From: an uncultured Bacteroidales bacterium
Lineage (GTDB): Bacteria; Bacteroidota; Bacteroidia; Bacteroidales; VadinHA17
Length of the DNA stretch: 64,000 nt
Assembly (NCBI GenBank): GCA_963846335.1
Contig: CAWJVS010000020.1
Span: 30,238 to 94,237 of the forward strand
Direction of reading: 5' to 3'
A program made the position numbers and the translations under genes. Position 1 is the stretch's first letter. Each line of letters begins with the position of its first letter. The notes beneath the pieces were generated by a model that was not told the origin of the DNA, ran no database searches, and saw only the letters and a list, made by a program, of their open reading frames with translations. This document shows positions 15,598 through 31,440 of this stretch, piece after piece.

Positions 15598-16626
15598 ATG
15601 AATCCACTTGCAGGTATCTTATTAATAGCGCTCGGAAGTATCGGAGCTGCCAGCTTTTATGTTCCGTTTAAGAAAGTCAGATCATGGGCATGGGAATCCT
15701 ACTGGTTAAGCCAGGGAGTTGCAGCATGGCTCATAGCACCGATATTGTTCGCTTTCATATTTGTTCCCCGGGGTGAACTCCTCCCGATAATAAATGAAGC
15801 ACCACTGAACGCAAAACTAATGGCAATGTTTTTCGGAGTATTGTGGGGTTTCGGTGGATTGACATTCGGATTAAGCATACGATATCTTGGAGTTGCCCTT
15901 GGCCAGAGTATAGCTCTGGGACTATGTGCTGCATTCGGGACTCTTATACCTCCGGTTATTGCAGGAGAGAATCTGTTTGCAACTACATCCGGCATTCTGA
16001 CTGTTGTGGGAGTGTCAATAGCTGTGGCAGGCATTGCCGTTATAGGTTATGCCGGCGCTCTGAAAAGCGGTGAGATGAGTGAAGAGGAAAAGAAAGCGGC
16101 TGTAAAGGAGTTTGCCCTTAAGAAAGGAATTCTCATTGCAATATTTGCAGGAGTGATGAGCGCCTGTTTTAACTTCGGTTTTGAGTCTGCCAAACCTATT
16201 GAGGCCATTGCACTCGCTCATGGTACCAATCCGCTGTTTCAAAAGAATCCGTCACTGATCTTCATTCTGCTGGGAGGATTTATCACTAACCTGGTCTATT
16301 GCGGGTACCTCAATTTCAGGAACAAAACATATAAGGATTATTTTACAGTTTCAGGATCCGTTTTGCTGAATAATCTGTTTTTTACCTTTCTGGCGGGATT
16401 TCTATGGTTCCTTCAGTTTCATTTTTTCGGGATGGGCTCGAGTAAATTGCCTGAGAGCATGTCAGTCTTTGGCTGGAGTATCCTTATGGCACTCAATATC
16501 GCAATCAGCAATATCTGGGGAATATTTCTAAATGAATGGAAAGGGGTGAGGCAAAAAACGATTATCGTTCTGATCCTGGGGATTTTAATACTTATTCTTT
16601 CAACATTTGTGGTTAAATTAGGCTAA
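15598..16626 (+). CDS. rhaT: L-rhamnose-proton symporter
   Basis: 342 aa with 10 TM segments. The N-terminus GILLIALGSIGAASFYVPFKKVRSWAWESYWL is typical of RhaT. Sits in rhamnose-locus context. Confidence 0.85.
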   Translation: MNPLAGILLIALGSIGAASFYVPFKKVRSWAWESYWLSQGVAAWLIAPILFAFIFVPRGELLPIINEAPLNAKLMAMFFGVLWGFGGLTFGLSIRYLGVALGQSIALGLCAAFGTLIPPVIAGENLFATTSGILTVVGVSIAVAGIAVIGYAGALKSGEMSEEEKKAAVKEFALKKGILIAIFAGVMSACFNFGFESAKPIEAIALAHGTNPLFQKNPSLIFILLGGFITNLVYCGYLNFRNKTYKDYFTVSGSVLLNNLFFTFLAGFLWFLQFHFFGMGSSKLPESMSVFGWSILMALNIAISNIWGIFLNEWKGVRQKTIIVLILGILILILSTFVVKLG

Positions 16627-16631
16627 ATATT

Positions 16632-16952
16632 ATGGAAACAAAAAAGTTTGCTTTTAAAATGAAACTATTGCCCGGTTGCAGGGAGGAATACAGGAAACGT
16701 CATAGTGAGATATGGCCAGAACTGGTAAAACTCCTTAAAGATGAAGGTATTGGCAATTACTCTATTTTCCTGGATGAAGAGACTAATATTTTATTTGCGT
16801 ATCAGGAACAGTCAGGTTCAGGATCATCACAGGACCTGGGACAAACAGAAATAGTAAAAAAATGGTGGAAATATATGGCCGACATTATGGAAACCAATCC
16901 CGACAATTCACCGGTCTCCACTCCGCTCGATCAGGTATTTTATATGAAATAG
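16632..16952 (+). CDS. rhaM: L-rhamnose mutarotase
   Basis: 106 aa. Y.KRH.EIWPEL...L...GI.NYSIF matches the RhaM/YiiL family. Confidence 0.85.
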   Translation: METKKFAFKMKLLPGCREEYRKRHSEIWPELVKLLKDEGIGNYSIFLDEETNILFAYQEQSGSGSSQDLGQTEIVKKWWKYMADIMETNPDNSPVSTPLDQVFYMK

Positions 16953-17070
16953 GGCCGGGGGTCAGGAATTCTCCTGTGGGCTTATTTTTTGATGAAAGCA
17001 GGTTATACCGGAGAAAAATATCAATAAGTAAAAAGCTGAATTTTAGAATAACTATAAAACAATATTTCGT

Positions 17071-18294
17071 ATGAAAAAAGAGCTTGTTAAAGAGTCATAT
17101 AAACTTGCCAGGGAACAGTATGCTGCACTGGGAGTTGATACCGACAAGGTAATTGCCGGTATGGAGAATGTCAATATCAGTCTGCACTGCTGGCAGACTG
17201 ATGATGTTGGTGGTTTTGAAAAACCGGGAGCGGAACTTGGAGGAGGAGGTATCCAGGTTACCGGTAATTTCCCGGGGAAAGCAAAGACAATTGAACAGAT
17301 GCGGGCTGATCTGGATAAAGTCATGTCACTTCTGCCAGGAAAGCAAAGACTGAATCTTCACGCCATATATGGCGAGTTCGATGGTAAACTTGTTGACCGC
17401 GACCAGATTGAAGTTAAACATTTCAAAGGCTGGATTAACTGGGCAAAAGAGAGAGGCATTGGTCTGGACTTTAATTGCACCTGCTTTTCACACCCTTATG
17501 CTGATGATGGTTTTACCCTTTCAAGTAAAAATGAAAAAATCAGGAAGTTCTGGGTTGAACACACAAAACGGTGCAGGGCTATCGGAGCCGAAATGGGTAA
17601 ACAGCTCGGGTCTCCAACCGTACATAATATATGGATACCAGATGGTTCTAAAGATACTCCGGTTGACAGAAACGAGCTCAGGAAGCAACTTAAAAAGTCT
17701 CTTGATGAGATCTTTGCAGTGAAATATCCGAAGAAATATCTGAAAGACTCTGTTGAAAGCAAGCTTTTTGGAATTGGTTCAGAATCGATGGTTGTGGGAT
17801 CGCATGATTTTTACCTGGGGTATGCCCTGCAAAACAATATAATGATCACACTGGACAATGGACATTTCCATCCGACAGAACAGGTTGGGGATAAGATATC
17901 TTCAATTCTTCACTATGTTGATGAAATACTGCTTCATCTGACCCGTGGAGTCCGCTGGGACAGTGATCATGTACTCACATTTAATGAGGACCTGCTCCTT
18001 ATAGCCCAGGAAATAGTCAGATGCAAAGCCCTTGGAAGAGTAAGTGTGGGTCTTGATTTTTTCGATGCGAGCCTGAACCGGATTGGTGCATATGTAATTG
18101 GCACACGGTCCGCCCAGATGGCTTTTATGTATGCATTGCTTGAACCTCATAAAACTCTTGTAAAATATGAAGAACAGGGTAAAAACTTTGAAAGGCTTGC
18201 ATTGCTTGAAATTCTGAAATCCAAACCATTCGGAGCTGTCTGGGATTATTATTGCATGATCAGACAAAGTACCGGTGGCAGAGGATTATATTGA
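17071..18294 (+). CDS. rhaA: L-rhamnose isomerase (3' end frame-disrupted)
   Basis: ISLHCWQ.DDV.GFE and LDNGHFHPTE are typical of RhaA. The last ~12 aa (MIRQSTGGRGLY*) look out of frame. The expected tail SDKVPVAEDYIEEILKYEKEVLLKRR is in the next frame from about 18262. Confidence 0.85.
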   Translation: MKKELVKESYKLAREQYAALGVDTDKVIAGMENVNISLHCWQTDDVGGFEKPGAELGGGGIQVTGNFPGKAKTIEQMRADLDKVMSLLPGKQRLNLHAIYGEFDGKLVDRDQIEVKHFKGWINWAKERGIGLDFNCTCFSHPYADDGFTLSSKNEKIRKFWVEHTKRCRAIGAEMGKQLGSPTVHNIWIPDGSKDTPVDRNELRKQLKKSLDEIFAVKYPKKYLKDSVESKLFGIGSESMVVGSHDFYLGYALQNNIMITLDNGHFHPTEQVGDKISSILHYVDEILLHLTRGVRWDSDHVLTFNEDLLLIAQEIVRCKALGRVSVGLDFFDASLNRIGAYVIGTRSAQMAFMYALLEPHKTLVKYEEQGKNFERLALLEILKSKPFGAVWDYYCMIRQSTGGRGLY

Positions 18295-18429
18295 GGAGAT
18301 CCTGAAATATGAAAAAGAGGTTCTGCTGAAGAGGAGATCTTATTTGAGAGGGAAAAGTGTTATTAATAAGTTATATTATGAAAGAGACGAGTTATTGCTA
18401 TTTTTGATATCGGAAAAACCAATAAGAAA

Positions 18430-19068
18430 ATGCTCCTGTTCAATACAGATCTTAAAGTTGTTTCTGAATCAGAACAGAGATTTTCTGAAATCAAGGATGA
18501 TGATGGATTCGAATGCGATGATATTGATCTGATTGAAAAATGGATTAAGGAATCAGTTTCAAAACTGGTAAATTCTGACAAGTATGATCTGAAGGCTGTA
18601 AATTTCACAACATACGGAGCCACAATTGTATACCTTGATGCAGAAGGCAGGAGTCTTACCCCGGTTTATAATTATCTGAAACCGATGGAGGAGAGGATTT
18701 CAGAAAACCTTTACAAGAAATATGGAGGCAGGGATGAATTCTGCAGAAGGACTGCTTCACCTGCACTTGGAATGCTTAATTCAGGACTTCAACCATTCTG
18801 GCTGAAAGCTGAGAAACCGGAGATATTTAATAAAATCAGGCATATACTGCACTTTCCTCAGTACCTGTCATATACCCTGACTGGCAAGATATACTCAGAA
18901 CATACATCAATCGGTTGCCATACGGCTTTATGGGATTTTGACAACATGAATTATCATCCATGGATCAATGCGTACGGATTGGAATTGCCGGAACCGGTTC
19001 CTGTGGAGACTGTCAATGAAGTTGGAGATAGAAGGAAAGAAAATCCGGGTTGGAATAGGAATCCATGA
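18430..19068 (+). CDS. FGGY-family sugar kinase (probable rhamnulokinase), N-terminal fragment
   Basis: IFDIGKTNKK precedes the called Met in frame. An ATG at 18378 (MKETSYC) is one frame off, implying an indel at codon 3. The rhamnulokinase role is inferred from position after rhaA. Confidence 0.65.
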   Translation: MLLFNTDLKVVSESEQRFSEIKDDDGFECDDIDLIEKWIKESVSKLVNSDKYDLKAVNFTTYGATIVYLDAEGRSLTPVYNYLKPMEERISENLYKKYGGRDEFCRRTASPALGMLNSGLQPFWLKAEKPEIFNKIRHILHFPQYLSYTLTGKIYSEHTSIGCHTALWDFDNMNYHPWINAYGLELPEPVPVETVNEVGDRRKENPGWNRNP

Positions 19069-19729
19069 CAGCTCAGCTTCTCTCGCTCCTTATTTCTCAA
19101 GCGGTAAGGGTAAATTCCTTCTTTTATCCACCGGAACCTGGTGCATCAACATGAATCCTTTCAATACCGAAAGACTGACTGCTGAACAGCTCGACCGTGA
19201 TTGTCTGTGCTACCTGAGCATTACCAGACAACCTGTCAAATCATCCAGGTTCTGGCTGGGACACCTTCATGAATCAGTTGCTGACAGGATATCTTTGCAT
19301 TTCGGAAAACCTGCCGGCTATTTCAAGAAAGTTAAGCCGGACAAGCGCATATTATCAGAGATGAAGAAAAAATATGGCGAAAACAAGATTTTCTTTAAAC
19401 CATTTTCTTTTCTAAGGGATCTGAATGAGTCCGTTGACATGTACGAATTTGCTACCTATGAGGAGGCCTATCACCAGCTTATGATTGAACTTTGCTATTT
19501 TACCGTTGAATCCATAAACCTTATACTCCCCGAAAATGATGAAACTTCAAATATTTACATTACCGGAGGTTTCTCGGGAAATAAATTGTTTCTGGAAATG
19601 ATCAGAGAAGCTTTTCCGGCAAAGAAGGTGTGGACATCAGAAATCGGCAATGCTTCCGCCCTTGGTGCAGCTCTGGTTGTTTCAGGCTCTGCTCCGGATC
19701 TTAATCTGGACCTTACTGAATGTGTTTGA
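18968..19729 (+). CDS. FGGY-family sugar kinase, C-terminal fragment
   Basis: GIGIHDSSASL, LSTGTWCI and ITGGFS.N are FGGY motifs. Joins 18430..19068 through a frameshift near 19020. Confidence 0.65.
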   Translation: MRTDWNCRNRFLWRLSMKLEIEGKKIRVGIGIHDSSASLAPYFSSGKGKFLLLSTGTWCINMNPFNTERLTAEQLDRDCLCYLSITRQPVKSSRFWLGHLHESVADRISLHFGKPAGYFKKVKPDKRILSEMKKKYGENKIFFKPFSFLRDLNESVDMYEFATYEEAYHQLMIELCYFTVESINLILPENDETSNIYITGGFSGNKLFLEMIREAFPAKKVWTSEIGNASALGAALVVSGSAPDLNLDLTECV

Positions 19730-19766
19730 GGACCAGTATTTAAGTAAGGAATTAAAGTAAATAATG

Positions 19767-20375
19767 CTATTTTAGTATTATAACCCTTGTGGAGTAATAT
19801 TGTGTTTCTCCGCTTAACCTGACAATGTATACTCCTCCGGGCAAGGGTGCGTTGTTGAAATTTTTCCCGTACCAGTCGATGTAATATTCACCAGCCTCAA
19901 TGCTCTGATCGGTGAGGGTATTAACCAGTTTACCCTGTATATCATATATTTCAATTCTGTACCTTCCTGCAGCTGCAACCTCTACCCTCATTGTTGTATA
20001 ATCGCGGAATGGATTGGGGAAGCATGTCAGACGGCAGTCTGTCAGGGGCAATGTATCTGTTGAATCAGAGTGAACAGACTGGAAATTTATGACACCAGGG
20101 GTGCCTCCTATGAGACCCGATTTCCAGTTTTTACCTGAATTGTTGTCTGACAGCGGATCTGTAAGTTCAATTGACGTACCCGTGACAATTGCATCTGACG
20201 GCCAGGGGGCACTGGAAGTAAAGCTCAGGAAGTCAACAAGATTTCCATCAGCATCGTATAGGTTTATGTCATCACCCGAACTGCTGAGGCCAAAAGCCAT
20301 ATCTCCGGAAATATTGTTTACCATTGGCCAGAATCTAAGGAACGCAGCCACGTCGCGGCAAACAACTATATACAT
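19767..20375 (-). CDS. CotH/LTD protein, C-terminal fragment (LTD remainder plus T9SS C-terminal domain)
   Basis: INLYDADGNLVDFLSF belongs to the lamin-tail domain. FPNPFRDYTTMRVEV...YDIQGKLV...GVYIVRL is a T9SS CTD. The frame is open upstream to about 20405. Confidence 0.75.
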   Translation of the reverse strand: MYIVVCRDVAAFLRFWPMVNNISGDMAFGLSSSGDDINLYDADGNLVDFLSFTSSAPWPSDAIVTGTSIELTDPLSDNNSGKNWKSGLIGGTPGVINFQSVHSDSTDTLPLTDCRLTCFPNPFRDYTTMRVEVAAAGRYRIEIYDIQGKLVNTLTDQSIEAGEYYIDWYGKNFNNAPLPGGVYIVRLSGETQYYSTRVIILK

Positions 20376-20418
20376 TCCGGGTGAAAGGATAAAATCTTCA
20401 GGAATAACATAACCGGTT

Positions 20419-20649
20419 TCAGGTCCTGCAGTCGCTTATGATCCAGTTTTTCAGATTCACTGTTGAATTACCAGCATTATATAATTCCACCCAGTCTTTC
20501 GTATCTTTCTCCGGGGATGATTTATAATTTATCTCATTGATCACAATTTTTATATCCGTATTCCTTGCAGGCTCGAAAACAGCCTTAAAGGTCTTCGCCT
20601 CTGCCATATTGTAATCGAGCGAAACGGAATTTGATTCAAGGGAACCCAT
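20419..20649 (-). CDS. CotH/LTD protein, middle fragment (start of second lamin-tail domain)
   Basis: IVINEINYKSSPEKDTKDWVELYNAGNSTVNLKNWIISD is an LTD signature. It connects to the 880-aa fragment via APG|YKFVKW, with an extra G in the CCCGGG run near 20670. Confidence 0.7.
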   Translation of the reverse strand: MGSLESNSVSLDYNMAEAKTFKAVFEPARNTDIKIVINEINYKSSPEKDTKDWVELYNAGNSTVNLKNWIISDCRT

Positions 20650-20665
20650 TTGCCATTTGACAAAT

Positions 20666-23308
20666 TTATATCCCGGGAGCCGGAATGGCAGTCAGCTTAA
20701 TAGGCAGATCTTTGAAATAGATGCCATAGAACGGATATTCATGAGGTACGATGGAGTTTACCTTCACAGTTCCTGTACCGGGATCATCTATCTCGATCCT
20801 GATGCTGAGTTCCGTCGCCAGATTGAACTGGTATCTTAAATACATCCTCGCATAATCGGGCCGGCGGTTTGCAAAGCTCTTAATGATGCTGTAGTTATAC
20901 TGCCATGAATCCATGCTTAACCCCCAGCGGGCAAAATGATCCTCCGCTTCCGGAAGATAAACCTGCTTTAATGAATCAACTACAGTATTGACCCTTATCG
21001 AAGTGAAGTTGGTATTAAGCCTGTCGGCAAACTGATTTGAAAATTCATTTCTGAATCCGGTATTTGATGCCATGCGTCTGAAAAGCAGAGTAGACCATGG
21101 TGGATTAGGCCATCCCGGACCATTTGGCTCGAGGGCATAGGCCAGAGTGTTGTAACTATAAGCCGCTTCTTCCCAGATGGAGAAACCAAAGTCTGTATCA
21201 AATATTATCCACCGCCAGAGACTGCCCGGATCATTTGTATTCCAGAATTTGATATTGTTCCCGGGCCAGTCTTTGTTGTTTATGTAGATCTGAGTCAACT
21301 GATACTGAATATAATTGTCAAGGTCTATTTTCCGGCTTACCTGGCTGTACTTCTGTGCATTTTCAAGAGTGTTGTTTTCAAGATAGCCAATGATGTCCAT
21401 GTAGTCGCTGTTGCTGCCTTCAATAACATCACCATTGAATTCAAGAAGGTTTACATTATCCGGATTTACAAAATGATTTTCAGCAATGAAATTTTCATTG
21501 ACCTTTTCCCTTATATCGAGTATTCCCCAGTATTCGCCGTTTATATAAACCACCGCCGGCTGAAACGCCTGACGGTCTACATCCATGTCTCTGATGAGAG
21601 TTGAAGTTAGTCCATCCCTCAGCATTGCCTGGTCCCAGTCATTACCGGAATTTCTCAGGACAAGGGATTCAAATTTCTCAATGTGTTTGTCATTAAAGAC
21701 CTTGTAGTCAAAGGAACCTTTGCCATATTCCTTTCTGGCGAAGAGTGCCAGTGATTTTTGAGGGTACGCACGCGAATATGCACCGAAAATCTTTATTCCT
21801 ATATCCTGATCAATCTGTTTGATTCCTTTGACATCATATAATTCCATATGCGCCTCTCTTTCCCAGTCCTTCCAGAAATTAGCGCCAAAATTTGGTGGAT
21901 CAGGTGATGCATTCGGTCCCATAGCATAGATCCCGTAATTATAGTCCCATAAGTTATCAGGATCAGTACTGAGGCATACAACAGGGAGAGTATGGTTTTT
22001 CGTAATGTATGTATTAGTGGCTGTCGCTCCGGGTAATCTTTCGGATTTGATTGATCGTGCTCTTACAACTGTATTGCCAGAAAGCGGTATAGGGTCAATA
22101 TACCGTGGAGATGTAACAGTTGGTTCTGATCCGTCGAGGGTATAAAATATTGAATCGGAAAGACAGGTTGATGAAAGCTGAAGGTTCAGCCCGCCAGGAT
22201 AATAACCTCCCTTTGCAGAGAAAATTACTGTATCTCCCTCAAGTGAATCATATCCTTTGGATGTATTTGAGGCACCCGGAGTGGGAACTGCAAAATAAAG
22301 CCATGAATCATCGCCATCCGGCTTTCTTCCATATGACAGGTCTGAACGCATTATTACAGGAGATACTGAATCAACAACTGAGGAGTCAGGCCGGGAGAAT
22401 ACAATCGTTTCTCCCTCATTACTGATCTTGAAATTGGTATGCAATTTTCTTCCCTTGAGCTGAATGTAATCTGGCACAGAATCCTGCTCTCCCGATGCAA
22501 TCCGGCCAATACTCAGCATTGGAATGAGGCTGAAATCAGATGAAGCAGGATCGGAATTATGTCCCTGAATGGCAATTACGTTAACCCCCTCAGCAAGAAA
22601 TGATACCGGATCCGGAATAACAAAATTCTCCGGAAACCCTCCCTGATATAATGTCGCTTCCCTGGCCAGGATGCCGGTAAGCATGTTGAATGGCACCGTG
22701 GATGCTGAGCCCAGATTGCTCCTTGCAATTTCATGGCCGTTTATATAAGCTACAAACCCGTCATCGTAGTCAATACTCAAAACCAGTTCTTCAATATTCT
22801 GAAGATTGGTTATGGTGAACTCTTTTCTTATAAAGACACTTATAATATTATTTAATACCGTTGAATCATCGTTGTCTCCATAGCCAAAACCGCTCGATCC
22901 CGTATTCCATGCGGAGGCATCAAAACCTCTGTCCTTCCATGATTCCCCTGTTTCAGATTCAGGAACAAGATACTTCCACTCAGCATCTCTTGAAATTATT
23001 GTCTTATAGCTGACAGGAAGTGCTGTCCTGTTTTTATCAGAGGCAAAAATCAGAAGGTAGGAATAAGGCTTAAGAGGTACTGCGGGAAGAGTCCATTTTG
23101 TAAAAAAAGATGCATCGTCGGAAAGATGGTACCCGTCGAGGTTTATCCCGGAAGCTGAATTGTTAAATAGTTCAATCCAGTCATTGTATTCACCATCCTC
23201 ATCAGCTATCCGGCTGATATTTGATGATGAGAATTCATTGATAAGAACCTGAGGATACAACTTAACCGATAAAAACAGTAATAGAAAACAAAACTGCAGT
23301 TGACGCAT
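20666..23308 (-). CDS. CotH-family kinase-like protein with N-terminal lamin-tail domain (main 880-aa fragment)
   Basis: Signal peptide followed by VLINEFSSSN...DWIELFNNS (LTD). The central ~450 aa look CotH-like (LRNSGNDW, LRD, YINGEYWGIY-type, FDTDF). Together with the two downstream fragments it forms one ~1180-aa gene. Confidence 0.75.
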   Translation of the reverse strand: MRQLQFCFLLLFLSVKLYPQVLINEFSSSNISRIADEDGEYNDWIELFNNSASGINLDGYHLSDDASFFTKWTLPAVPLKPYSYLLIFASDKNRTALPVSYKTIISRDAEWKYLVPESETGESWKDRGFDASAWNTGSSGFGYGDNDDSTVLNNIISVFIRKEFTITNLQNIEELVLSIDYDDGFVAYINGHEIARSNLGSASTVPFNMLTGILAREATLYQGGFPENFVIPDPVSFLAEGVNVIAIQGHNSDPASSDFSLIPMLSIGRIASGEQDSVPDYIQLKGRKLHTNFKISNEGETIVFSRPDSSVVDSVSPVIMRSDLSYGRKPDGDDSWLYFAVPTPGASNTSKGYDSLEGDTVIFSAKGGYYPGGLNLQLSSTCLSDSIFYTLDGSEPTVTSPRYIDPIPLSGNTVVRARSIKSERLPGATATNTYITKNHTLPVVCLSTDPDNLWDYNYGIYAMGPNASPDPPNFGANFWKDWEREAHMELYDVKGIKQIDQDIGIKIFGAYSRAYPQKSLALFARKEYGKGSFDYKVFNDKHIEKFESLVLRNSGNDWDQAMLRDGLTSTLIRDMDVDRQAFQPAVVYINGEYWGILDIREKVNENFIAENHFVNPDNVNLLEFNGDVIEGSNSDYMDIIGYLENNTLENAQKYSQVSRKIDLDNYIQYQLTQIYINNKDWPGNNIKFWNTNDPGSLWRWIIFDTDFGFSIWEEAAYSYNTLAYALEPNGPGWPNPPWSTLLFRRMASNTGFRNEFSNQFADRLNTNFTSIRVNTVVDSLKQVYLPEAEDHFARWGLSMDSWQYNYSIIKSFANRRPDYARMYLRYQFNLATELSIRIEIDDPGTGTVKVNSIVPHEYPFYGIYFKDLPIKLTAIPAPGI

Positions 23309-23341
23309 GATCTGACAAATGACTCCATGTTAATCCGGCAC

Positions 23342-23349
23342 CAAATGTA
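23342..23349 (-). promoter_or_regulatory. Candidate Bacteroidetes -7 box (TACATTTG on the minus strand) for the CotH gene
   Basis: Exact match to TAnnTTTG, 34 nt upstream of the ATG at 23308. No well-spaced TTTG -33 element was found. Confidence 0.35.
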
Positions 23350-23410
23350 CATAAAATTTAATTATATCGCAGGAGTGTATCAATGTGTAAAATTTGGGAG
23401 AATTTAATAT

Positions 23411-23418
23411 TATATTTG
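23411..23418 (+). promoter_or_regulatory. Candidate Bacteroidetes -7 box (TATATTTG) for the LTD-VTC-DUF4956-DUF2490 operon
   Basis: Exact TAnnTTTG match 46 nt upstream of the ATG at 23464. A TTTG at 23393-23396 is spaced only 14 nt, shorter than the usual 19-21 nt. Confidence 0.4.
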
Positions 23419-23420
23419 TG

Positions 23421-23438
23421 ACAGATTTTAAAATCTGT
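23421..23438. promoter_or_regulatory. Perfect 18-bp palindrome ACAGATTTTAAAATCTGT (candidate operator or 5'-UTR hairpin)
   Basis: Read directly. It starts 3 nt after the -7 box and lies 26 nt before the LTD lipoprotein ATG. Confidence 0.45.
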
Positions 23439-23463
23439 AAAATAATATTCCTGCTGGCATACT

Positions 23464-23994
23464 ATGGTATTCAAGACAACGGTAAAAAGGAAAATCCTGC
23501 TGCTATTTCTCCTGGTTCTGGCTACACAACCGGGATGCAAAAAACCTCCGGAACCGGTATCCGGCGATATAATAATAAATGAGCTACTCCCGGTAAATAC
23601 TTCGATCGCTCCTGACCAGGATGGTGAATATGATGACTGGATTGAATTATATAATCTGTCCGGTTCGGCAAAAGATATTTCAGGTTTTTTTCTTTCAGAT
23701 AACAAGGATCATTTCTCGAAATGGGAATTTCCTTCGGGAACATCAATTCCCGGGAATGGATATCTCATTATCTGGGCTGATGATGATAGTGCGCAGATCG
23801 GTCTTCATACAAATTTCAAGCTATCTTCGCTCGGCGAAGAGGTGTTGCTTTCAACTCCGGATGGCACTCTTCTGGACAAAGTCATTTATCCGGGACAGAG
23901 CCTTGAATTGTCATTCTCCAGAAATCCTGACGGTACTGGTGCCTTCATTTGGCAAACACCTACATTCAACAGTTCCAACAATATACCGGAATAG
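23464..23994 (+). CDS. Lamin-tail-domain (LTD) lipoprotein
   Basis: 176 aa. The leader ends LATQPGC (lipobox-like Cys). IIINELLPVN...DDWIELYNLSGSAKDISGFFLSD...GYLIIWADDD matches LTD. Confidence 0.75.
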   Translation: MVFKTTVKRKILLLFLLVLATQPGCKKPPEPVSGDIIINELLPVNTSIAPDQDGEYDDWIELYNLSGSAKDISGFFLSDNKDHFSKWEFPSGTSIPGNGYLIIWADDDSAQIGLHTNFKLSSLGEEVLLSTPDGTLLDKVIYPGQSLELSFSRNPDGTGAFIWQTPTFNSSNNIPE

Positions 23995-24049
23995 AAAATG
24001 GATGCGTTTACTTATGATCTGACGCAACTATTTAATCTAAACAACACCG

Positions 24050-24832
24050 GTGTTTAGCATCATGCAGAATAGCGATATAGAAAGCGAATTAAGCAAATTA
24101 GGTTCCGTCAGCCTTGATGCAATTTCTGATGTCAGGTTAATGAACAGGATTGAAATAAAATACGTGTTTACCTGTTGTAAGCTGCCTGATCTGCTATGTC
24201 TGCTGAATAATCATTATCAGGTGCTTGAAATAAGCAATATGAGGATCCTTCCTTATTTTACAACTTACTTTGATACACCGGATTATCTGTTCTATAACCA
24301 GCATGTAAGAGGCGAATATGACAGGCATAAGATAAGGTATAGAAAATATGAGGTTTCAAAAGAATCATTTCTCGAAATTAAAAAGAAGACGAATAAAGGG
24401 AGAACCATTAAATGGCGAATAGAAAATAAACTCCCGGCTGCCTCCTTCGATTCAGAAGCCACCGCCTTTATCGGAAAATATCTGCCGGTAAATTCAACTC
24501 TCATCAGGCCTTCCCTGGTAAGTACTTTTACCCGCATAACACTGGCAGGGATCGAACGTAAAGAAAGAATGACTATCGATTTCAATATCTCCTTTTCAGA
24601 TCCTGAAAAATCACGGATGTTATCACTTCCTCATCTTACAATAGTTGAACTGAAAAAAGAAGCATTATCAGATTCATCAGAGCTAAAAAGTCTCCTCAGG
24701 CATCTCAATATATATCCAACAGCATTCAGTAAATACTGTGTCGGGAGCGCACTTCTGAATGACTCTCTCAAGAAGAATATGATCAAACCTAAGCTATTAT
24801 TACTTAACAAATTGGAAAATGAATACACTTGA
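24050..24832 (+). CDS. VTC-domain (polyphosphate-polymerase-like, triphosphate tunnel) protein
   Basis: 260 aa. NRIEIKYVF at the N-terminus, RYRKYE, LEIKKK and TIVELK strands resemble bacterial VTC/CYTH-like tunnel proteins. The likely true start is the ATG at 24062. Confidence 0.6.
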   Translation: MFSIMQNSDIESELSKLGSVSLDAISDVRLMNRIEIKYVFTCCKLPDLLCLLNNHYQVLEISNMRILPYFTTYFDTPDYLFYNQHVRGEYDRHKIRYRKYEVSKESFLEIKKKTNKGRTIKWRIENKLPAASFDSEATAFIGKYLPVNSTLIRPSLVSTFTRITLAGIERKERMTIDFNISFSDPEKSRMLSLPHLTIVELKKEALSDSSELKSLLRHLNIYPTAFSKYCVGSALLNDSLKKNMIKPKLLLLNKLENEYT

Positions 24833-25511
24833 TATTATATCAACTGACAAAACAGCACTGTCCGGAATTGAATTCATCGACTGGGCTAATCTTCTCGAGC
24901 TGATCGGCCGTTTTGCCCTGAACCTCATCGTAATTCTTATTCTTGTAAGATGGTTTTATTTTTCAACCACCAGGCGGAAAGATTTTCTTTTCACCTATAT
25001 CCTTATTTCAAGTATTGTTTTCTTGCTGTGCTTCCTGCTGGAAAATGTTATGCTTCAGATTGGATTTGCTCTCGGGCTCTTTGCAATTTTCGGGATCATT
25101 CGCTACCGGACACATGCTATTCCGATCAAGGAGATGACTTACCTGTTTCTCATCATCGGAATCTCGGTGATAAATGCCCTCGCCAATACAGCCAGTATCA
25201 GTGAAATTATTTTTACCAACCTGATTATTATCTTTATTACCTATGGCCTCGAAAAGAAGTGGCTGCTGAGACACGAATCCTCAAAAAGCATAATTTACGA
25301 AAAGATCAACCTTATCAGAACTGAACATCATCAAGAACTTATAGAAGATCTTCAGATAAGGACAGGTATCAGGAAGATCAGCAGAATTGAAATAGGTGAG
25401 GTGGATTTTCTGAGAGATATTTGTCGCATTACGATATTTTTTGAAACCTCTGACAGGATGGAGAATGTTTCCTACCAGGTGGGCCATAAAATAGATGATG
25501 ATGATGATTAG
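24819..25511 (+). CDS. Membrane protein, DUF4956-like
   Basis: 230 aa with 4-5 TM segments followed by a soluble tail. Overlaps the VTC gene by 14 nt. The family assignment is from memory of the VTC-DUF4956 pairing and is not verified. Confidence 0.5.
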   Translation: MNTLDIISTDKTALSGIEFIDWANLLELIGRFALNLIVILILVRWFYFSTTRRKDFLFTYILISSIVFLLCFLLENVMLQIGFALGLFAIFGIIRYRTHAIPIKEMTYLFLIIGISVINALANTASISEIIFTNLIIIFITYGLEKKWLLRHESSKSIIYEKINLIRTEHHQELIEDLQIRTGIRKISRIEIGEVDFLRDICRITIFFETSDRMENVSYQVGHKIDDDDD

Positions 25512-26172
25512 ATATTATGTTTTCTTCTTTTTGCTGCTTGCAATTGCCAGTGCAGTTTACAGTCAGGACACCGATTTTGGGCTCTGGTATGAGGTGAAAG
25601 CAGAAAAATCATTAAATAAAAAGTTCGAAATCACCGGATCTGTAATGGTAAGGACTTTTGAGGATGCTTCAATAATAGAAGAGGCATTCACTGAAATAGG
25701 TGCTTCATACAGACTGAACAAATATATCGGATTTGCCTTATCTTACAGGATCGGCAATTATCTTGAGGATGATGATCTGTATCATATAAGGCACAAATGG
25801 TTCGGCGATATAAAAGGATCTCTTCCTGCAGGCCAGTTTGTCTTTTCTGCCCGGTTAAGGCTCCAGATGATTGCAAGGACATATATTGAAGATGAGAAAG
25901 ATGACAGAGCAGAATACGATGGCAGGCTAAGATTAAAGGCAGTTTATAAAATCCCTGACTTCCCGGTAAATCCGTATCTGAGTTTCGAGACTTTCAGCCC
26001 GGTTTTCAGAAACGAAGGTCGCCTGATTGACAAAAGCAGAAGTGCAGTCGGACTGGAATTCAAAATAACCAGCAAGCACTATCTTGAAACTGAATATGTC
26101 TATCAGAGAGATACTTATCCCAATCTGTCGATTTTAAATATCATCTCCCTGAGCTATACATTCAAGTTTTAA
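25495..26172 (+). CDS. Putative outer-membrane beta-barrel protein, DUF2490-like
   Basis: 225 aa with a signal peptide. Alternating-hydrophobic strands end in the aromatic terminus LSYTFKF. Overlaps the upstream gene by 17 nt. Confidence 0.5.
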   Translation: MMMMIRYYVFFFLLLAIASAVYSQDTDFGLWYEVKAEKSLNKKFEITGSVMVRTFEDASIIEEAFTEIGASYRLNKYIGFALSYRIGNYLEDDDLYHIRHKWFGDIKGSLPAGQFVFSARLRLQMIARTYIEDEKDDRAEYDGRLRLKAVYKIPDFPVNPYLSFETFSPVFRNEGRLIDKSRSAVGLEFKITSKHYLETEYVYQRDTYPNLSILNIISLSYTFKF

Positions 26173-26174
26173 TA

Positions 26175-29100
26175 TTACTCTTTCTTAAGGCTTGCAGTCA
26201 GTGAACTGCCGGTCACAGATCCCAGGGAAAAGAAGAGAGCTGCAAGACCTGTGCAAAAGATTATAATAACCATTGAAATAAGATAGATCCACGGTACATC
26301 GGAGCTGTTTTTCAATGAGGGGAGCGTTGCTATGATAGCAGGAATAACTCCGGCACTCATCCCTGCCATAAGGATAATTATCTGTTCCTGAAGTATCAAT
26401 TTTCTGATTTTCTTTACGTTAAAACCAGTAGCAAGCATCAGGGCAAATTCTCTCCTGCGGTAATTGTAGTTTCTTAATAGCACAAAGCCGAGTCCTGCAA
26501 TCCCGGTTACCATGCCCAGTGCGCCAAAGACTCCAAATACGGAGAGATAGGTGTTGGTTACTTCATAAAAAGAGGCGAGTCTGTCGTTTGTCCTTTCCAC
26601 TTTGACTCCAAAATTTTCTAACCTTTCATTCAGAGTATTGCCATAGAGATCTGCAAGATCTTTATTGCCATCGACAAGAAGAATTGAACTCCCCGGAACA
26701 GACGGAAAATACTTTCTGAAATTATCCAGACCTATGACAACATAACCCTGGAAAACAGATGATTTCAGACCGGCAGCAATTATAATATTCAATTTCTGAC
26801 CATTTTCCGATCTCATCATCAGAGTGTCCCCGGGTTTGATTTTCAGACCCCACTGCAGAACTGTCTGATCTGCAATTCCATAAATTGTATTGCTGGTCGG
26901 AGGAAAACTCAAAAACTGCCATGGATTTTCAACATTCCCGGCTTCAATGGCTTTAGCGAATGAAAATGATCCCCGTGAGATAAATTCATTCTGGTCCACA
27001 CCCAGCAGGGGAGGAACTTTTATATGATTGAGATTAAGGCAACTGGCATCGTTTCCTGCATATCTTTTCATCTGCACAAACTGCATCCCTGTCAACTGTT
27101 CTTCATCAAGGGCCAGGGTGGTTCTTCCCGTGTTTGTTTCCAGATCAGCCCTTACAGGTATTGTATTGTCGCACCAGAACAGAAAACCTCCGGTTCCGCC
27201 TGTAGGTTTCAGATGGCTGCTGTCAAAACTCATCCTGTTCGCACCTGTAATAAAAACTGCAAAAATGCCTGCTGCAATGAACAGAATGGGAGTGACTGCA
27301 TGAGATGGGTAATATGAATAGTAGAGCCTCGATAACTTAAGCGTCGGATCAGCTTTTTCTGAAAAGAGATTAAAGGAACTTATGAAGTATTGCCTCCATA
27401 AAAGAATAATGACGATAAGCAGGAGAGTGCCTGCGGAAAAACTCAGTACCACTTCCTGCTCTTTCAGGATGTTAGAAAGGATGTATAAACCTGCTGAGAT
27501 GAAAAATGAGATCAGCAGAAGAATCAGATTCAGGAGAGGGGAAGACTTTGTATCTAAAGCTTTTTTCTTACGATTAAGATTCTTAAGATGAAGCCTGATT
27601 TTGAACTCCAGAAAAACTATTGCAATAATTATCGTAATCAAAAAGCCTGCAAGTATTGGCAAAAGGCTGAAAAAAGTACTGAGGGTATCTGTCTGGACTG
27701 CTCCCTGCCAGACCGTATTAAGCAGTTTAATAATAAGAAAGCTTACCAGCATACCGGCAAATGAGCCGAGAAATGATCCTGTTAGCGATATAAAGCCTGA
27801 TTCAGCGAGCAATAGTTGTTTAATCCATCCGGTCCTGAATCCCAGAGCAAAAAACGTCCTGATCTGAATGTGTTTTGAATCAAGGTATGTCGTAACTGCA
27901 AATGACAATAAAACAACCGAAGCCAGGATAAGGAAGAATCCAAGACTGAGGAAAAGAGAGCTGAAATCGACACTCTCGCTGGCTGCCAGCAGTGAATCGC
28001 TGTACAGATCCGTGATTATGAATCCATTACTGGCAGGATCAAGATACCCTGCAAGTCTCCCTGAAATCTCCTGTGCACTTATGGATCCGGGAAAACGAAT
28101 CGCTGTTGCAGGTCCGAAATTATTTCCCCATAATTCGACTCCCTTGTCATAATTAATAAATGCCTTGGGAGTTCCTCTGAACCTATTCCAGTATTGCTCA
28201 TCTTTCTGGCGGATGTCATTGAGTTTTATTGTAACGCCTGCATCCCACTCAGAACAGGACTCGCTTCCTGATATACCCGGAAAGTCCGGCATCAGAAGGG
28301 AATCTCCCCATATTCCGTTCATTTCGACAATCCGGCTCACACGGAATCTGCTCTTTCTTTCAATGAGCTTGCTAAGTGAATCAGGTGCATACCATACCAT
28401 TTCAACAGTGTCACCCTGATTGATGTCCAGATCCCCGGCAAGCCATCTGTTAACAATGACTTCGTTACCGGTGACAATGTCAGGATATAGTGAATGCGGT
28501 AAGGCTGCAATAAATGAATATGGTGTTGATCTGGCCCCATGGGAAATCCTGTTTCCAAGATAAGTTATTACCGGCGCAGCAGGGGGAATATAGTTTTTTA
28601 CCTCGCTTACAAGAGAATTTTCAAGAAATATTTTGTCTGATCTCAATTCATATCCGCCGGTCTTTTCAAGAGGTATTATTTTCAGGCCGATATCTGAAGG
28701 TTTCATATGATTTCTTAAAGCATCATATGCCTTTTCCGTGGTAATATTATTATTAATCTCAAACAGTAACCTGTTGATCTTAATCTGTTTACCTGAGGTT
28801 CCAAAAATATCTGAAATATTGATAAATATATTTTCAGGTACAACCTGGCTTATTGATAGTGAGAAATCAGCTGATTCGGCAGGCTTCAATATTGAGCCTA
28901 CTTTTACCACCAGCGACCTTCCTTCCTCATTTGCCGGAGCAAAAGGAGCATCAGCTGGTATATCGCTGTAATCGTTAAACCGGAGAATCAGTTCATCACC
29001 TTTTTTCAGGTCCAGAGAAACAGCAATCTTTTCATTTACTGCTACCTCTCCCGGATTGATTTTTATTGCTTCTTTGCCATGAAAGCTGAAAAAATCCCCG

Positions 29101-29441
29101 TTAATGGCGTATATATGAGTATTGGGTATTGCTTTCTGGGTACTTAGATTCTGGCAAAGTCCGTTGATTTCGAGTAACCCTGTGCAATTTATCCGGGCGC
29201 TGTCCCTTAATCTGTCTGCCAGGGACAGATCAAAAAACCTGGTTCCTGAACTGATCAGAATGCCCGTATTTCCAAGACGTTCAGTGGCAGATTTTTTCAG
29301 ACTTGCCCTTACTGACCATCCGGTAAGGAGAGAGCCTGTAATTACGGCTGATAATAACGCGACAATAAGAATCTGATATAAGACAGGCTTTTTATAAAAC
29401 CTGGCAGACCTGATCACTATTTTTACTATACCCGGCACCAT
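26175..29441 (-). CDS. ABC transporter permease, MacB/FtsX-type with two FtsX domains and large extracytoplasmic domains
   Basis: 1088 aa. FtsX-like 4-TM bundles at about aa 500-620 and 960-1088, each preceded by a long soluble region. Confidence 0.8.
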   Translation of the reverse strand: MVPGIVKIVIRSARFYKKPVLYQILIVALLSAVITGSLLTGWSVRASLKKSATERLGNTGILISSGTRFFDLSLADRLRDSARINCTGLLEINGLCQNLSTQKAIPNTHIYAINGDFFSFHGKEAIKINPGEVAVNEKIAVSLDLKKGDELILRFNDYSDIPADAPFAPANEEGRSLVVKVGSILKPAESADFSLSISQVVPENIFINISDIFGTSGKQIKINRLLFEINNNITTEKAYDALRNHMKPSDIGLKIIPLEKTGGYELRSDKIFLENSLVSEVKNYIPPAAPVITYLGNRISHGARSTPYSFIAALPHSLYPDIVTGNEVIVNRWLAGDLDINQGDTVEMVWYAPDSLSKLIERKSRFRVSRIVEMNGIWGDSLLMPDFPGISGSESCSEWDAGVTIKLNDIRQKDEQYWNRFRGTPKAFINYDKGVELWGNNFGPATAIRFPGSISAQEISGRLAGYLDPASNGFIITDLYSDSLLAASESVDFSSLFLSLGFFLILASVVLLSFAVTTYLDSKHIQIRTFFALGFRTGWIKQLLLAESGFISLTGSFLGSFAGMLVSFLIIKLLNTVWQGAVQTDTLSTFFSLLPILAGFLITIIIAIVFLEFKIRLHLKNLNRKKKALDTKSSPLLNLILLLISFFISAGLYILSNILKEQEVVLSFSAGTLLLIVIILLWRQYFISSFNLFSEKADPTLKLSRLYYSYYPSHAVTPILFIAAGIFAVFITGANRMSFDSSHLKPTGGTGGFLFWCDNTIPVRADLETNTGRTTLALDEEQLTGMQFVQMKRYAGNDASCLNLNHIKVPPLLGVDQNEFISRGSFSFAKAIEAGNVENPWQFLSFPPTSNTIYGIADQTVLQWGLKIKPGDTLMMRSENGQKLNIIIAAGLKSSVFQGYVVIGLDNFRKYFPSVPGSSILLVDGNKDLADLYGNTLNERLENFGVKVERTNDRLASFYEVTNTYLSVFGVFGALGMVTGIAGLGFVLLRNYNYRRREFALMLATGFNVKKIRKLILQEQIIILMAGMSAGVIPAIIATLPSLKNSSDVPWIYLISMVIIIFCTGLAALFFSLGSVTGSSLTASLKKE

Positions 29442-29464
29442 ATTAATCTACTATGTCAGTATAT

Positions 29465-30139
29465 TCAGCTTAATCTCCCGTTGCCAAGGATCATGGTGCG
29501 GGCCATTTTCCGTGCCAGTTTTTCCGAATGGGTTGCGAGGAGTAAAGTTATACCAAATTCCATGTTCATCTCAACCAGGAGTTCACCCATGTTGTCAGCG
29601 TTCTTTGCGTCGAGTGAACCTGTAGGTTCATCAGCAATCAGGATGGAAGGACTATTTATGAGAGCCCTGACAAGTGCTGCACGCTGTGCTTCTCCTCCGG
29701 AAATTGTACCCGGGTATTTGGACGAAAGCTCCGCAATCCCAGTCTGCTGCATGAGAGTGACAGCGCGTTTCTCCTTTTCTGAATACTCTTCCCTGCTCTG
29801 TTTTGTTGCAAGCAGCGGAAGAAGTATATTTTCGTGAATGGTAAGGTGCGGCAGCAGAAGGTGTTCCTGAAAAACAAAGCCAATATTACGGTTTCGGTAA
29901 GCTGCAGATTCATCATCGGTGAAATTTCTGATGTCATGTCCCATGAAGCTGATTTCACCGCTGTCCGGTTTATCCAGAAGACCTATAATATTCATGAGTG
30001 TTGTTTTCCCTGATCCGGAAGGGCCCATTATTGCGACTGTATCCCCCTGTTTCAGCTCAAGGGAAAGATTGTCAAGAACTAATCCTCTCTGTATAAACGA
30101 TTTTGATATATTTTTCAGTGAAAGCATTATGTATGACAT
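29465..30139 (-). CDS. ABC transporter ATP-binding protein (MacB/LolD-like)
   Basis: Walker A GPSGSGKTTL, signature ISGGEAQR, Walker B ILIADEPTGSLD. The likely start is MLSLKNI at 30127. Confidence 0.9.
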   Translation of the reverse strand: MSYIMLSLKNISKSFIQRGLVLDNLSLELKQGDTVAIMGPSGSGKTTLMNIIGLLDKPDSGEISFMGHDIRNFTDDESAAYRNRNIGFVFQEHLLLPHLTIHENILLPLLATKQSREEYSEKEKRAVTLMQQTGIAELSSKYPGTISGGEAQRAALVRALINSPSILIADEPTGSLDAKNADNMGELLVEMNMEFGITLLLATHSEKLARKMARTMILGNGRLS

Positions 30140-30143
30140 TAAA

Positions 30144-31043
30144 TTATTTATTCATGGTCTCATTATATACAATTGCCAGACCTTCAGACATTACCGCCAG
30201 GGACAATTCTCTCAAAACATTTTCTTTACCCCTTTGCCCAAGGCTGGCTCTCAGGGTATTATCTTCAAATAATCTTACAAGCGCTGCTGATAATTCTTCT
30301 GTGGTATCAGGAGAATAGGTTATTCCTCCCCCGGTTTTTTCAATTATTTCAGGAAATGCACCGGTCTCAGGCTGAACAACAGGAACCCCTGAAGCATTTG
30401 CTTCAAGGATATACAGGCCATATCCGTCATGCTTCCTTACGGGGACGCTCATTATGTCTATACTGCTGAAAAACTCCTCTTTGCTGTTTCCCTGAAATTC
30501 AGGATAGATTCTGATGGAGCTTTTCAAGCCATGGTATTTTATCTTCCTTATCTGCTCTGCAATGAAGGATTTATCACTACCGGTAAAGCCGCCCGACACA
30601 TGAAGTGTGAGCTCAGGCAGCTTATTCCTTGTTTTAAGGTCAATAAAGGCATCAACCAGTTTGTCAAAGCCATTCGGAGAATTTATCCTGCTGAAATATC
30701 CAACAGCAGGATAATTATTTTTCTTTGGCAGCACATTTAAATTCCTGGTGTCTATTGCCAGAGGTATTATGTGTACATTTTTACCCGAAAAACCTGTTTT
30801 TGAGATAAACAATTCTTTATAGTAGTTACTCGGCGTAATAAAAGTATCAACATTGACAGCCTCTTCCGAAATCAGTTTCCATGCATCCGAACGATATGGT
30901 TCAGCCATCTCATCAATCCAGTCATCCTCATTTAACAGGGAGCAGACAATCTTTACGTCGAGGTATTTCTTAAGCTGTCGTGCCAGACCGATTATAAGTG
31001 CATTTGAGAGATGAATTATATCCGGTTTCCCATTCTCAGTCAA
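30144..31043 (-). CDS. Glycosyltransferase family 4 (GT-B), C-terminal fragment
   Basis: PDIIHLSN, GYFSRI...KG, and E..G...LEA.A.G.PVV (the EX7E region) are typical of GT4. Confidence 0.75.
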   Translation of the reverse strand: MTENGKPDIIHLSNALIIGLARQLKKYLDVKIVCSLLNEDDWIDEMAEPYRSDAWKLISEEAVNVDTFITPSNYYKELFISKTGFSGKNVHIIPLAIDTRNLNVLPKKNNYPAVGYFSRINSPNGFDKLVDAFIDLKTRNKLPELTLHVSGGFTGSDKSFIAEQIRKIKYHGLKSSIRIYPEFQGNSKEEFFSSIDIMSVPVRKHDGYGLYILEANASGVPVVQPETGAFPEIIEKTGGGITYSPDTTEELSAALVRLFEDNTLRASLGQRGKENVLRELSLAVMSEGLAIVYNETMNK

Positions 31044-31440
31044 GATATTTAACCAGTCTTTTAAGTTCTTTGTCAGGAAATGCTTTTTCCCCCTTTATCA
31101 TACTGAGTGTCATATCCTCAAGCCCTTCAGTGTTTGTTGTGCCAGACCTGCGCGCCGCCATTTTAAGCATTGGTCCGGAATCCAGAACTTTGTCCAGTAT
31201 TGCAGGCATATTTTTCAGAAAAGGGACCTTTTCCCTGAGATACATTGATATGGCGCCGAAGAACACATTCTTGTCGAAGCCGCTCTCAGTATTTGTGTCA
31301 TCCGGGGGAAGATACAAAGGAATGGCAGAAGCTGTAATTCCCGGCACATTCCTTATTGCCCGCAGGTATATCATATCGCGGTAACAGTTTCCGCAATAAA
31401 ATGATCCGCCCGAACCTGTTATAAGATAAATAATCTTCAT
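31036..31440 (-). CDS. Glycosyltransferase family 4, N-terminal fragment
   Basis: MKIIYLITGSGGSFYCGNCYRD is the N-terminal GT-B half. It ends KYLD*, 8 nt inside the next ORF. The single GT-B fold is split, which implies a 1-nt indel near 31040. Confidence 0.65.
   Translation of the reverse strand: MKIIYLITGSGGSFYCGNCYRDMIYLRAIRNVPGITASAIPLYLPPDDTNTESGFDKNVFFGAISMYLREKVPFLKNMPAILDKVLDSGPMLKMAARRSGTTNTEGLEDMTLSMIKGEKAFPDKELKRLVKYLD

Follow-up and report, generated by a model that had tools for sequence, protein, structure and literature searches.

We analysed a window of 64,000 nucleotides (nt) from an uncultured Bacteroidales bacterium (contig CAWJVS010000020.1, positions 30,238 to 94,237 of the forward strand), in which a minus-strand gene for a CotH-family secreted protein lies divergent from a plus-strand operon of four head-to-tail open reading frames (ORFs; LTD, VTC, DUF4956 and DUF2490, 23464-26172). 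Taken together, the cluster looks like a bacterial route for making polyphosphate at the cell envelope, perhaps also for moving it across. The genes concerned, with protein lengths in amino acids (aa) and Pfam matches, are:

19767..23308, minus strand: CotH-family secreted multidomain gene, delineated from ORFs and Pfam/NCBIfam matches, split into three frames in this assembly
23464..23994, plus strand: predicted LTD lipoprotein, 176 aa (PF00932, 9e-17)
24050..24832, plus strand: Vtc4-like triphosphate-tunnel protein, putative polyphosphate polymerase, 260 aa (PF09359, 2.8e-24)
24819..25511, plus strand: DUF4956 inner-membrane protein, 230 aa (PF16316, 6.7e-50)
25495..26172, plus strand: DUF2490 predicted outer-membrane beta-barrel, 225 aa (PF10677, 8.6e-21)

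A sequence-only reading of the window had proposed that these genes form one envelope-spanning system of CotH kinase and polyphosphate functions. The divergent arrangement that it described is correct, with a spacer of 155 bp (23309-23463) between the CotH gene and the operon, and the ORF coordinates reproduce its overlaps of 14 nt between VTC and DUF4956 and of 17 nt between DUF4956 and DUF2490; the overlaps in relatives are comparable (14-29 nt and 11-14 nt, respectively). Its assignments to VTC, DUF4956, DUF2490 and CotH were all borne out by Pfam matches far above the curated cut-offs, with scores of 86.4 bits (cut-off 23), 169.5 bits (30.6), 74.9 bits (29.8) and 163.2 bits (23.8), respectively. 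NCBIfam offered no model for any of the operon proteins or for the core of CotH.

The VTC protein carries no signal peptide. Its AlphaFold2 (AF2) model (predicted local distance difference test, pLDDT, 85) was searched against the PDB with Foldseek, and the top matches were Vtc4 structures (8i6v_E, 3g3r; about 1e-12, best 1.6e-12; template modelling score about 0.6), which agrees with the triphosphate-tunnel fold assigned to it earlier; the triphosphate tunnel metalloenzyme (TTM) hydrolases ygiF, AtTTM3 and ThTPase matched too, ranked below Vtc4. A single-sequence search of the PDB with the VTC protein returned nothing relevant and a profile of close VTC homologues failed too, the Vtc4 structures being reached only by a profile built from diverse locus-derived sequences. 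When the window protein was aligned to Vtc4 via a profile of 23 diverse VTC family members, eight of the nine Vtc4 catalytic residues proved to be kept, K37, R96, R98, K111, R162, E200, S227 and K228 corresponding to Vtc4 K200, R264, R266, K281, R361, E426, S457 and K458, respectively, and all eight are invariant in the family. The Vtc4 cryo-EM paper gives these eight as ligands of triphosphate and Mn2+, and K458 as the only one missing from the inactive subunits Vtc2/3. With a Vtc4-type fold in its model and these residues, including the K458 equivalent, in its sequence, the window protein resembles the active polymerase.

The likeness to the eukaryotic VTC complex (yeast Vtc4/Vtc3/Vtc1; PDB 8i6v, 7ytj, 3g3q) thus comprises the shared triphosphate-tunnel catalytic fold, the triphosphate- and metal-binding residues with the Vtc4-specific lysine, and a catalytic unit tied genetically to a membrane protein. 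In contrast to the eukaryotic complex, the window enzyme is a free soluble protein lacking SPX and a fused Vtc1-type transmembrane domain, has Phe in place of Y359, is paired with a membrane partner unrelated in sequence and lacking a solved structural relative, and belongs to a diderm envelope with an outer-membrane barrel. Neither SPX nor DUF202 (Vtc1-type) was matched by any operon protein, and the membrane partner matched DUF4956 alone.

The AF2 model of DUF4956 (pLDDT 84.6) comprises five helices (aa 22-148) and a soluble C-terminal beta-alpha-beta-beta domain (aa 153-209), in keeping with the multi-transmembrane protein recognised earlier. Among 59 diverse members of the family, G86, A89, F91 and R97 never vary and R95, Y96 and T98 hardly do, and the most conserved segment (G-x3-G-x2-A-x-F-x3-R-Y-R-T) falls at the end of the third helix; by the positive-inside rule we infer a cytoplasmic orientation both for this basic segment and for the C-terminal domain. 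The C-terminal domain bears a weak resemblance to ACT-type regulatory domains, which is stated for S. intermedius SIR_1592 as well (PMC12345266). We rejected the MgtC-like description of DUF4956 given in that paper, as it found neither a Pfam match (nothing other than DUF4956 appeared even at E = 10) nor support from PDB folds. We also rejected apparent DUF4956-CotH and DUF4956-DUF2490 "fusions" as Rosetta-stone evidence: in the predicted proteins P0270 and P0264 a lipobox or signal peptide sits internally where the two parts join, which suggests that overlapping neighbours were called as one gene. P0338 shows the DUF4956-DUF2490 pattern too.

In the LTD protein a hydrophobic leader is followed by a Cys (Q-P-G-C-K-K) that is kept in four Bacteroidales orthologues, which is consistent with the lipoprotein proposed before. 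This small protein was found only in the closer relatives of the window (L001, L007, L056, L087-L089) and on a Pseudoalteromonas plasmid, and its gene lies upstream of VTC also in the CotH-less relatives L089, L007 and L056. DUF2490 has a signal peptide and, as read from the sequence, a C-terminal Phe (end ...YTFKF), both in line with the outer-membrane barrel that had been predicted; the family is catalogued under TC 1.B.81, as a putative porin whose function is not established, and its predicted structures are outer-membrane barrels.

DUF4956 is widespread, with 1346 clusters at 50% identity and at least 599 confirmed stretches in an alignment scan that used a single peptide pattern and one genome per species. 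Co-occurrence was counted with locally built HMMs in the best 80 of these at least 599 loci, nearly all labelled Bacteroidota, the denominators being the loci with enough flank. VTC was found within 3 kb of DUF4956 in 65/68 loci, always on the same strand, DUF2490 within 3 kb in 35/56 (directly downstream of DUF4956 in most of the 35), and CotH within 10 kb in 9/37. The invariant core of the module is therefore VTC plus DUF4956. Where CotH occurs, it abuts the module in 13 of 14 loci, with DUF2490 present in 13 of the 14 and a small lipoprotein of another beta-sandwich-like family occupying the window's LTD slot in 11. Since CotH abuts the module so regularly and recurs beside it in Deinococcus and in Firmicutes/Actinobacteria, its link to the module is real but optional. 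The two divergent units are co-conserved only in part. The predicted locations do span the envelope from cytoplasm to surface (VTC without a signal peptide, DUF4956 with five helices, LTD with its Cys, DUF2490 with a signal peptide, CotH with a signal peptide and a C-terminal sorting domain).

Within the window's clade a divergent CotH gene is present in L001, L086, L087 and L088 and absent from L089, L056, L007 and L002-L006. The operon directly follows rhamnose genes in L089, L002, L005, L006 and L007, and from these CotH-less relatives CotH looks inserted beside a pre-existing operon.

The CotH gene encodes, in order, a signal peptide, an LTD, an unassigned region, CHB_HEX_C/Fn3_assoc, the CotH kinase, a second LTD and a C-terminal domain of the type IX secretion system (T9SS). 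Its parts are distributed as follows:

20666-23308, minus strand: CotH piece 1, 880 aa, with signal peptide, LTD, CHB_HEX_C/Fn3_assoc and CotH
20852..21796, minus strand: CotH kinase domain, aa 505-819 of the 880-aa piece (PF08757, E = 1.5e-47)
20419-20649, minus strand: CotH piece 2, 76 aa, first half of the second LTD
19767-20375, minus strand: CotH piece 3, 202 aa, remainder of the second LTD and T9SS sorting domain
19776..20021, minus strand: T9SS type A C-terminal sorting domain (PF18962, Por_Secre_tail, 7.2e-10; TIGR04183, 7.8e-13)

The secreted CotH-LTD-T9SS protein of about 1180 aa that had been proposed is thus present in all its domains and absent as a single open frame, being spread over three ORFs in three frames. 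Pfam matched LTD at the N-terminus and in the second piece of CotH as well as in the 176-aa lipoprotein, placing the domain on both sides of the spacer as stated before. The N-terminal leader MRQLQFCFLLLFLSVKLYPQ reads as a signal peptide and TIGR04183 scores 48.2 bits (cut-off 23), making this CotH a predicted T9SS cargo; nearly all module CotHs have signal peptides and T9SS tails.

The atypical protein-kinase fold ascribed to CotH was supported by the Pfam match and by a profile of 11 module CotHs, which matches the B. cereus CotH structure 5jd9 at 3.9e-31; a single-sequence PDB search with the protein gave nothing relevant, and the structure was reached only by this profile from diverse locus-derived sequences. 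Both catalytic aspartates, D680 (codon 21269-21271) and D704 (21197-21199), are kept and are invariant in 11/11 module CotHs, at a spacing of 24 residues compared with 23 for B. subtilis D228/D251. Neither enzyme of the locus has thus lost its catalytic residues, and those of CotH make it unlikely to be a mere binding protein. The window protein shares the atypical kinase domain and both aspartates with the Bacillus spore-coat Ser/Thr kinase CotH (5jd9/5jda), from which it differs in its size, in its export, in its LTD, CHB_HEX_C and T9SS domains, and in a host that is not spore-forming; unlike the Bacillus enzyme, it would work in a place in which no ATP is expected. A weak phmmer match of the C-terminal region (20837-21136, aa 725-823 of the 880-aa piece) to the Fe/Mn superoxide dismutase C-terminal domain (E = 7.7e-4) is probably spurious.

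Contexts in other phyla were drawn from plasmid records with tblastn; a third homologue search, for Gram-positive DUF4956, gave mainly Bacteroidota. Deinococcus taeanensis has a co-directional CotH-VTC-DUF4956 operon, Deinococcus sp. QL22 has VTC-DUF4956 beside an HAD acid phosphatase and phnDCE, and Nitratireductor has DUF4956-VTC-PiT with a phytase-like gene. The Pseudoalteromonas plasmid codes for an LTD protein, the remnant of a VTC protein, DUF4956 and the phosphate-selective porin Porin_O_P (2.4e-47), so that a relative of OprO/OprP there fills the slot downstream of DUF4956 that DUF2490 holds in Bacteroidota; DUF2490 itself, a much smaller protein without a known function, shows no sequence relation to OprO/OprP. 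On this plasmid (Pseudoalteromonas sp. CuT4-3, L083:6279-8657) the LTD gene overlaps the truncated VTC remnant, which retains only the last ~68 profile positions, and a divergent gene encodes a 655-aa hypothetical protein without a Pfam match.

The association of CotH, a polyphosphate polymerase and DUF4956 is not new, having been published for Gram-positive bacteria. According to Whitfield 2020 (PMC7112168), the Pel loci of streptococci, clostridia and bifidobacteria include cotH, a gene for a polyphosphate polymerase and DUF4956 among their accessory genes, an association spanning Firmicutes/Actinobacteria, with a comparable gene set in C. perfringens NELoc-2. In S. intermedius (SIR_1592-1594), deleting the CotH and DUF4956 genes reduces Pel-dependent aggregation, and the triad was reported not to be found outside Pel loci (PMC12345266); the window, its relatives and Deinococcus taeanensis are counter-examples to such confinement. 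The window shares with the Gram-positive loci three families side by side and a secreted CotH. It differs from them in having no pel genes or DUF4832 nearby (neither Pel nor DUF4832 families were found in the Pfam-annotated syntenic relatives), in the gain of DUF2490 and a small lipoprotein, and in a CotH with LTDs and a T9SS tail, whose gene is divergent from the other two instead of co-directional with them. This Bacteroidota form is undescribed, and the literature yielded no paper establishing a function for the cluster, as the sequence-only reading had supposed.

With VTC and DUF4956 invariant and synthesis by the eukaryotic enzyme coupled to passage through a membrane channel (Vtc4 cryo-EM paper), a membrane-coupled polyphosphate synthase is the most economical reading. 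By analogy, we tentatively regard the plus-strand operon as the bacterial equivalent of the polyphosphate-making VTC complex of eukaryotes, assembled from unrelated membrane parts and with CotH as an optional surface partner. The soluble tunnel enzyme would take the gamma-phosphate of cytoplasmic ATP and extend a polyphosphate chain while docked on DUF4956, whose gene overlaps its own; DUF4956 would thread the chain out of the cytoplasm in the manner of the Vtc1/3/4 channel, or at least hold or control synthesis at the membrane. In Bacteroidota the DUF2490 barrel, as a possible conduit, and a small beta-sandwich lipoprotein (here LTD) may carry the system to the outer membrane, and at about a quarter of the loci a T9SS-delivered CotH kinase with LTDs may be added, to act on the product or together with it at the surface of the cell. 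The extracytoplasmic site of an apparently active CotH suggests exported polyphosphate as its donor or substrate. The more specific proposal, that a VTC-like machine of tunnel polymerase, DUF4956 and outer-membrane barrel exports polyphosphate and that secreted CotH uses it in place of ATP as phosphoryl donor or attaches it to surface proteins or glycans, is in our judgement improbable.

In reviews and recent papers, Vtc4-type synthesis of polyphosphate is still described as a eukaryotic trait, and PPK1/PPK2 as the only route in bacteria. If VTC and DUF4956 do constitute an active polymerase-translocase, they would add a third pathway for polyphosphate in bacteria and might supply it to the periplasm or the outside of the cell, with a bearing on the biofilm matrix, cation handling and host interaction, and they would answer which donor secreted CotH kinases use. 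Exported polyphosphate as the donor would explain how a kinase can work outside the cell. The catalytic residues are now identified, as are tractable organisms with these genes, e.g. B. thetaiotaomicron, in which BT3498-99 are annotated as adjacent DUF4956 and DUF2490 genes.

Several observations weigh against this interpretation. The ninth Vtc4 residue, Y359, is matched by F160, in a stretch where the alignment is weak, and Y359F decreases the polyphosphate content of yeast (Vtc4 cryo-EM paper); our literature search returned no experiment showing polyphosphate made by any bacterial VTC-domain protein. The DUF4956 model has no significant fold match in the PDB and its sequence no detectable similarity to the Vtc1-type channel, so that a channel role for it would be pure conjecture, and no genuine VTC-DUF4956 fusion was seen. 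Many DUF2490 models show a buried charge network inside the barrel that fits an open pore poorly. About 75% of loci have no CotH, the close relative L086 lacks the LTD lipoprotein, and the phosphate-uptake neighbours suit import or storage equally well.

Cytoplasmic phosphate storage or homeostasis is the strongest competitor, though in our view an unlikely one. VTC would then make intracellular polyphosphate, DUF4956 would be a tether with a metabolite-sensing domain, DUF2490 a porin for the uptake of phosphate or polyphosphate, and CotH would have a separate job at the surface. Phosphate-acquisition neighbours in other phyla (PiT, phytase-like, phnDCE, HAD acid phosphatase, Porin_O_P), the rarity of CotH and the weakly ACT-like domain of DUF4956 all favour storage; yet cytoplasmic polyphosphate is already served in bacteria by PPK1/PPK2 according to published work, the eukaryotic enzyme of the VTC fold is obligatorily coupled to membrane transit, and an extracytoplasmic kinase abutting the module in four phyla would be left unexplained.

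Transport might instead run inward, the surface CotH and LTD proteins capturing polyphosphate or phospho-compounds, the barrel and DUF4956 importing them, and VTC serving as a tunnel hydrolase (tri-/polyphosphatase). Such scavenging would accommodate the phosphate-uptake gene context, the replacement of Y359 by Phe and the TTM relatives of VTC that are hydrolases. It appears improbable all the same, as the best fold matches of VTC are to Vtc4 and not to those hydrolases, the polymerase-specific Lys is invariant, and CotH keeps the catalytic residues of a kinase.

The CotH frame was examined at the nucleotide level. Its span of 3542 nt equals 1180 codons plus 2 nt, and alignment to the intact 1179-aa orthologue of L001 located two insertions of one base each, neither of them compensated, near 20678 and 20426:

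20670..20682, minus strand: frameshift site 1, one extra base around CCCGGGATATAAA, where the relative reads P-A-P-G-Y-K-F
20422..20434, minus strand: frameshift site 2, one extra base around GACTGCAGGACCTGAA, within the second LTD

Removal of one base at each site restores an ORF of 1179 codons, and intact orthologues of 1179-1180 aa with identical architecture occur in L001 (which shares the window's layout and whose DUF4956 is 87% identical to that of the window), L086 and L088. Translated comparison with L001 proteins revealed four more frame-broken genes in the neighbouring ~16 kb, each intact in L001: an FGGY kinase (break ~19022; ORFs 18430-19068 / 18968-19729), a GT4 gene (~31041; ORFs 30144-31043 / 31036-31440), a PQQ propeller (~31754) and a Fer2-type (ferredoxin-type) gene (~32996). 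Counting the two in CotH, this amounts to about one frame break per 2.7 kb, a density that points to an assembly which is error-prone and probably built from long reads. Because four neighbouring genes are broken at a similar rate and the orthologues are intact, the CotH breaks are likely assembly indels and not biology. Protein identity of CotH to its orthologue is 74-78% downstream of the breaks and 78% upstream, against a DNA identity of 76%, indicating purifying selection. That CotH merely neighbours an unrelated VTC operon, the broken CotH being a decaying pseudogene, is therefore highly improbable even with two frameshifts, fragmented second CotH copies in L001 and L087, and nearest CotH-less relatives that have the identical operon with other genes in CotH's place, given also that CotH is contiguous with the module at nearly all positive loci and in Deinococcus and Gram-positives.

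The second copies just mentioned are tandem CotH-LTD-CTD paralogues next to the first in L001 (1478-4459) and L087 (32-5377), each in 3-4 ORF fragments. As the other listed genes of L001 look full-length, its fragmented copy may be a real pseudogene, and copies of CotH seem to be gained and lost in this lineage.

The spacer contains two Bacteroidetes-type -7 motifs, one per gene:

23309..23463, no strand: divergent intergenic region with two TAnnTTTG motifs
23342-23349, minus strand: -7 motif facing CotH
23411-23418, plus strand: -7 motif facing the operon

TAnnTTTG occurs 54 times in the whole window against 55 expected; without enrichment, the motifs are weak support for promoters. Scans for sigma-70 promoters (23 sites against 18 expected) and terminators were uninformative, and Rfam gave no match in 19000-27000.

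At some loci of the co-occurrence set, T9SS-related ORFs neighbour the core at about +700 to +6500 from DUF4956 (L036, L038, L041, L044, L045, L049, L066, L067 and L069). L038 has VTC-DUF4956 with neither DUF2490 nor CotH, beside ORFs resembling ispF, porV and porU (T9SS sortase) by eye. The other eight carry a T9SS-tail protein at one shared offset, and clustering puts the neighbours of this protein in shared families. Two of the eight, L045 (PBNL01000005.1, labelled Methanobacteriota archaeon) and L069 (labelled Comamonadaceae), show a Flavobacteriales-like layout of VTC-DUF4956 with the downstream T9SS-tail protein, and their contigs are probably mis-binned in their metagenome-assembled genomes.

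In the window, the genes around the locus comprise rhamnose catabolism genes, an FtsX/ABC pair, the GT4 gene, the PQQ propeller gene and ferredoxin-type genes. The rhamnose utilisation cluster lies immediately upstream (15598-19729; RhaT-like 342 aa, RhaM-like 106 aa, RhaA 407 aa and the FGGY kinase) and is syntenic with relatives, directly preceding the LTD-VTC operon in L089. On the other side (26175-31440, minus strand), genes for a 1088-aa FtsX-type permease, an ABC ATPase and the GT4 glycosyltransferase run towards the end of DUF2490, the facing stop codons being only 2 bp apart, and this FtsX-ABC-GT4 neighbourhood is kept in all close relatives, including those without CotH.

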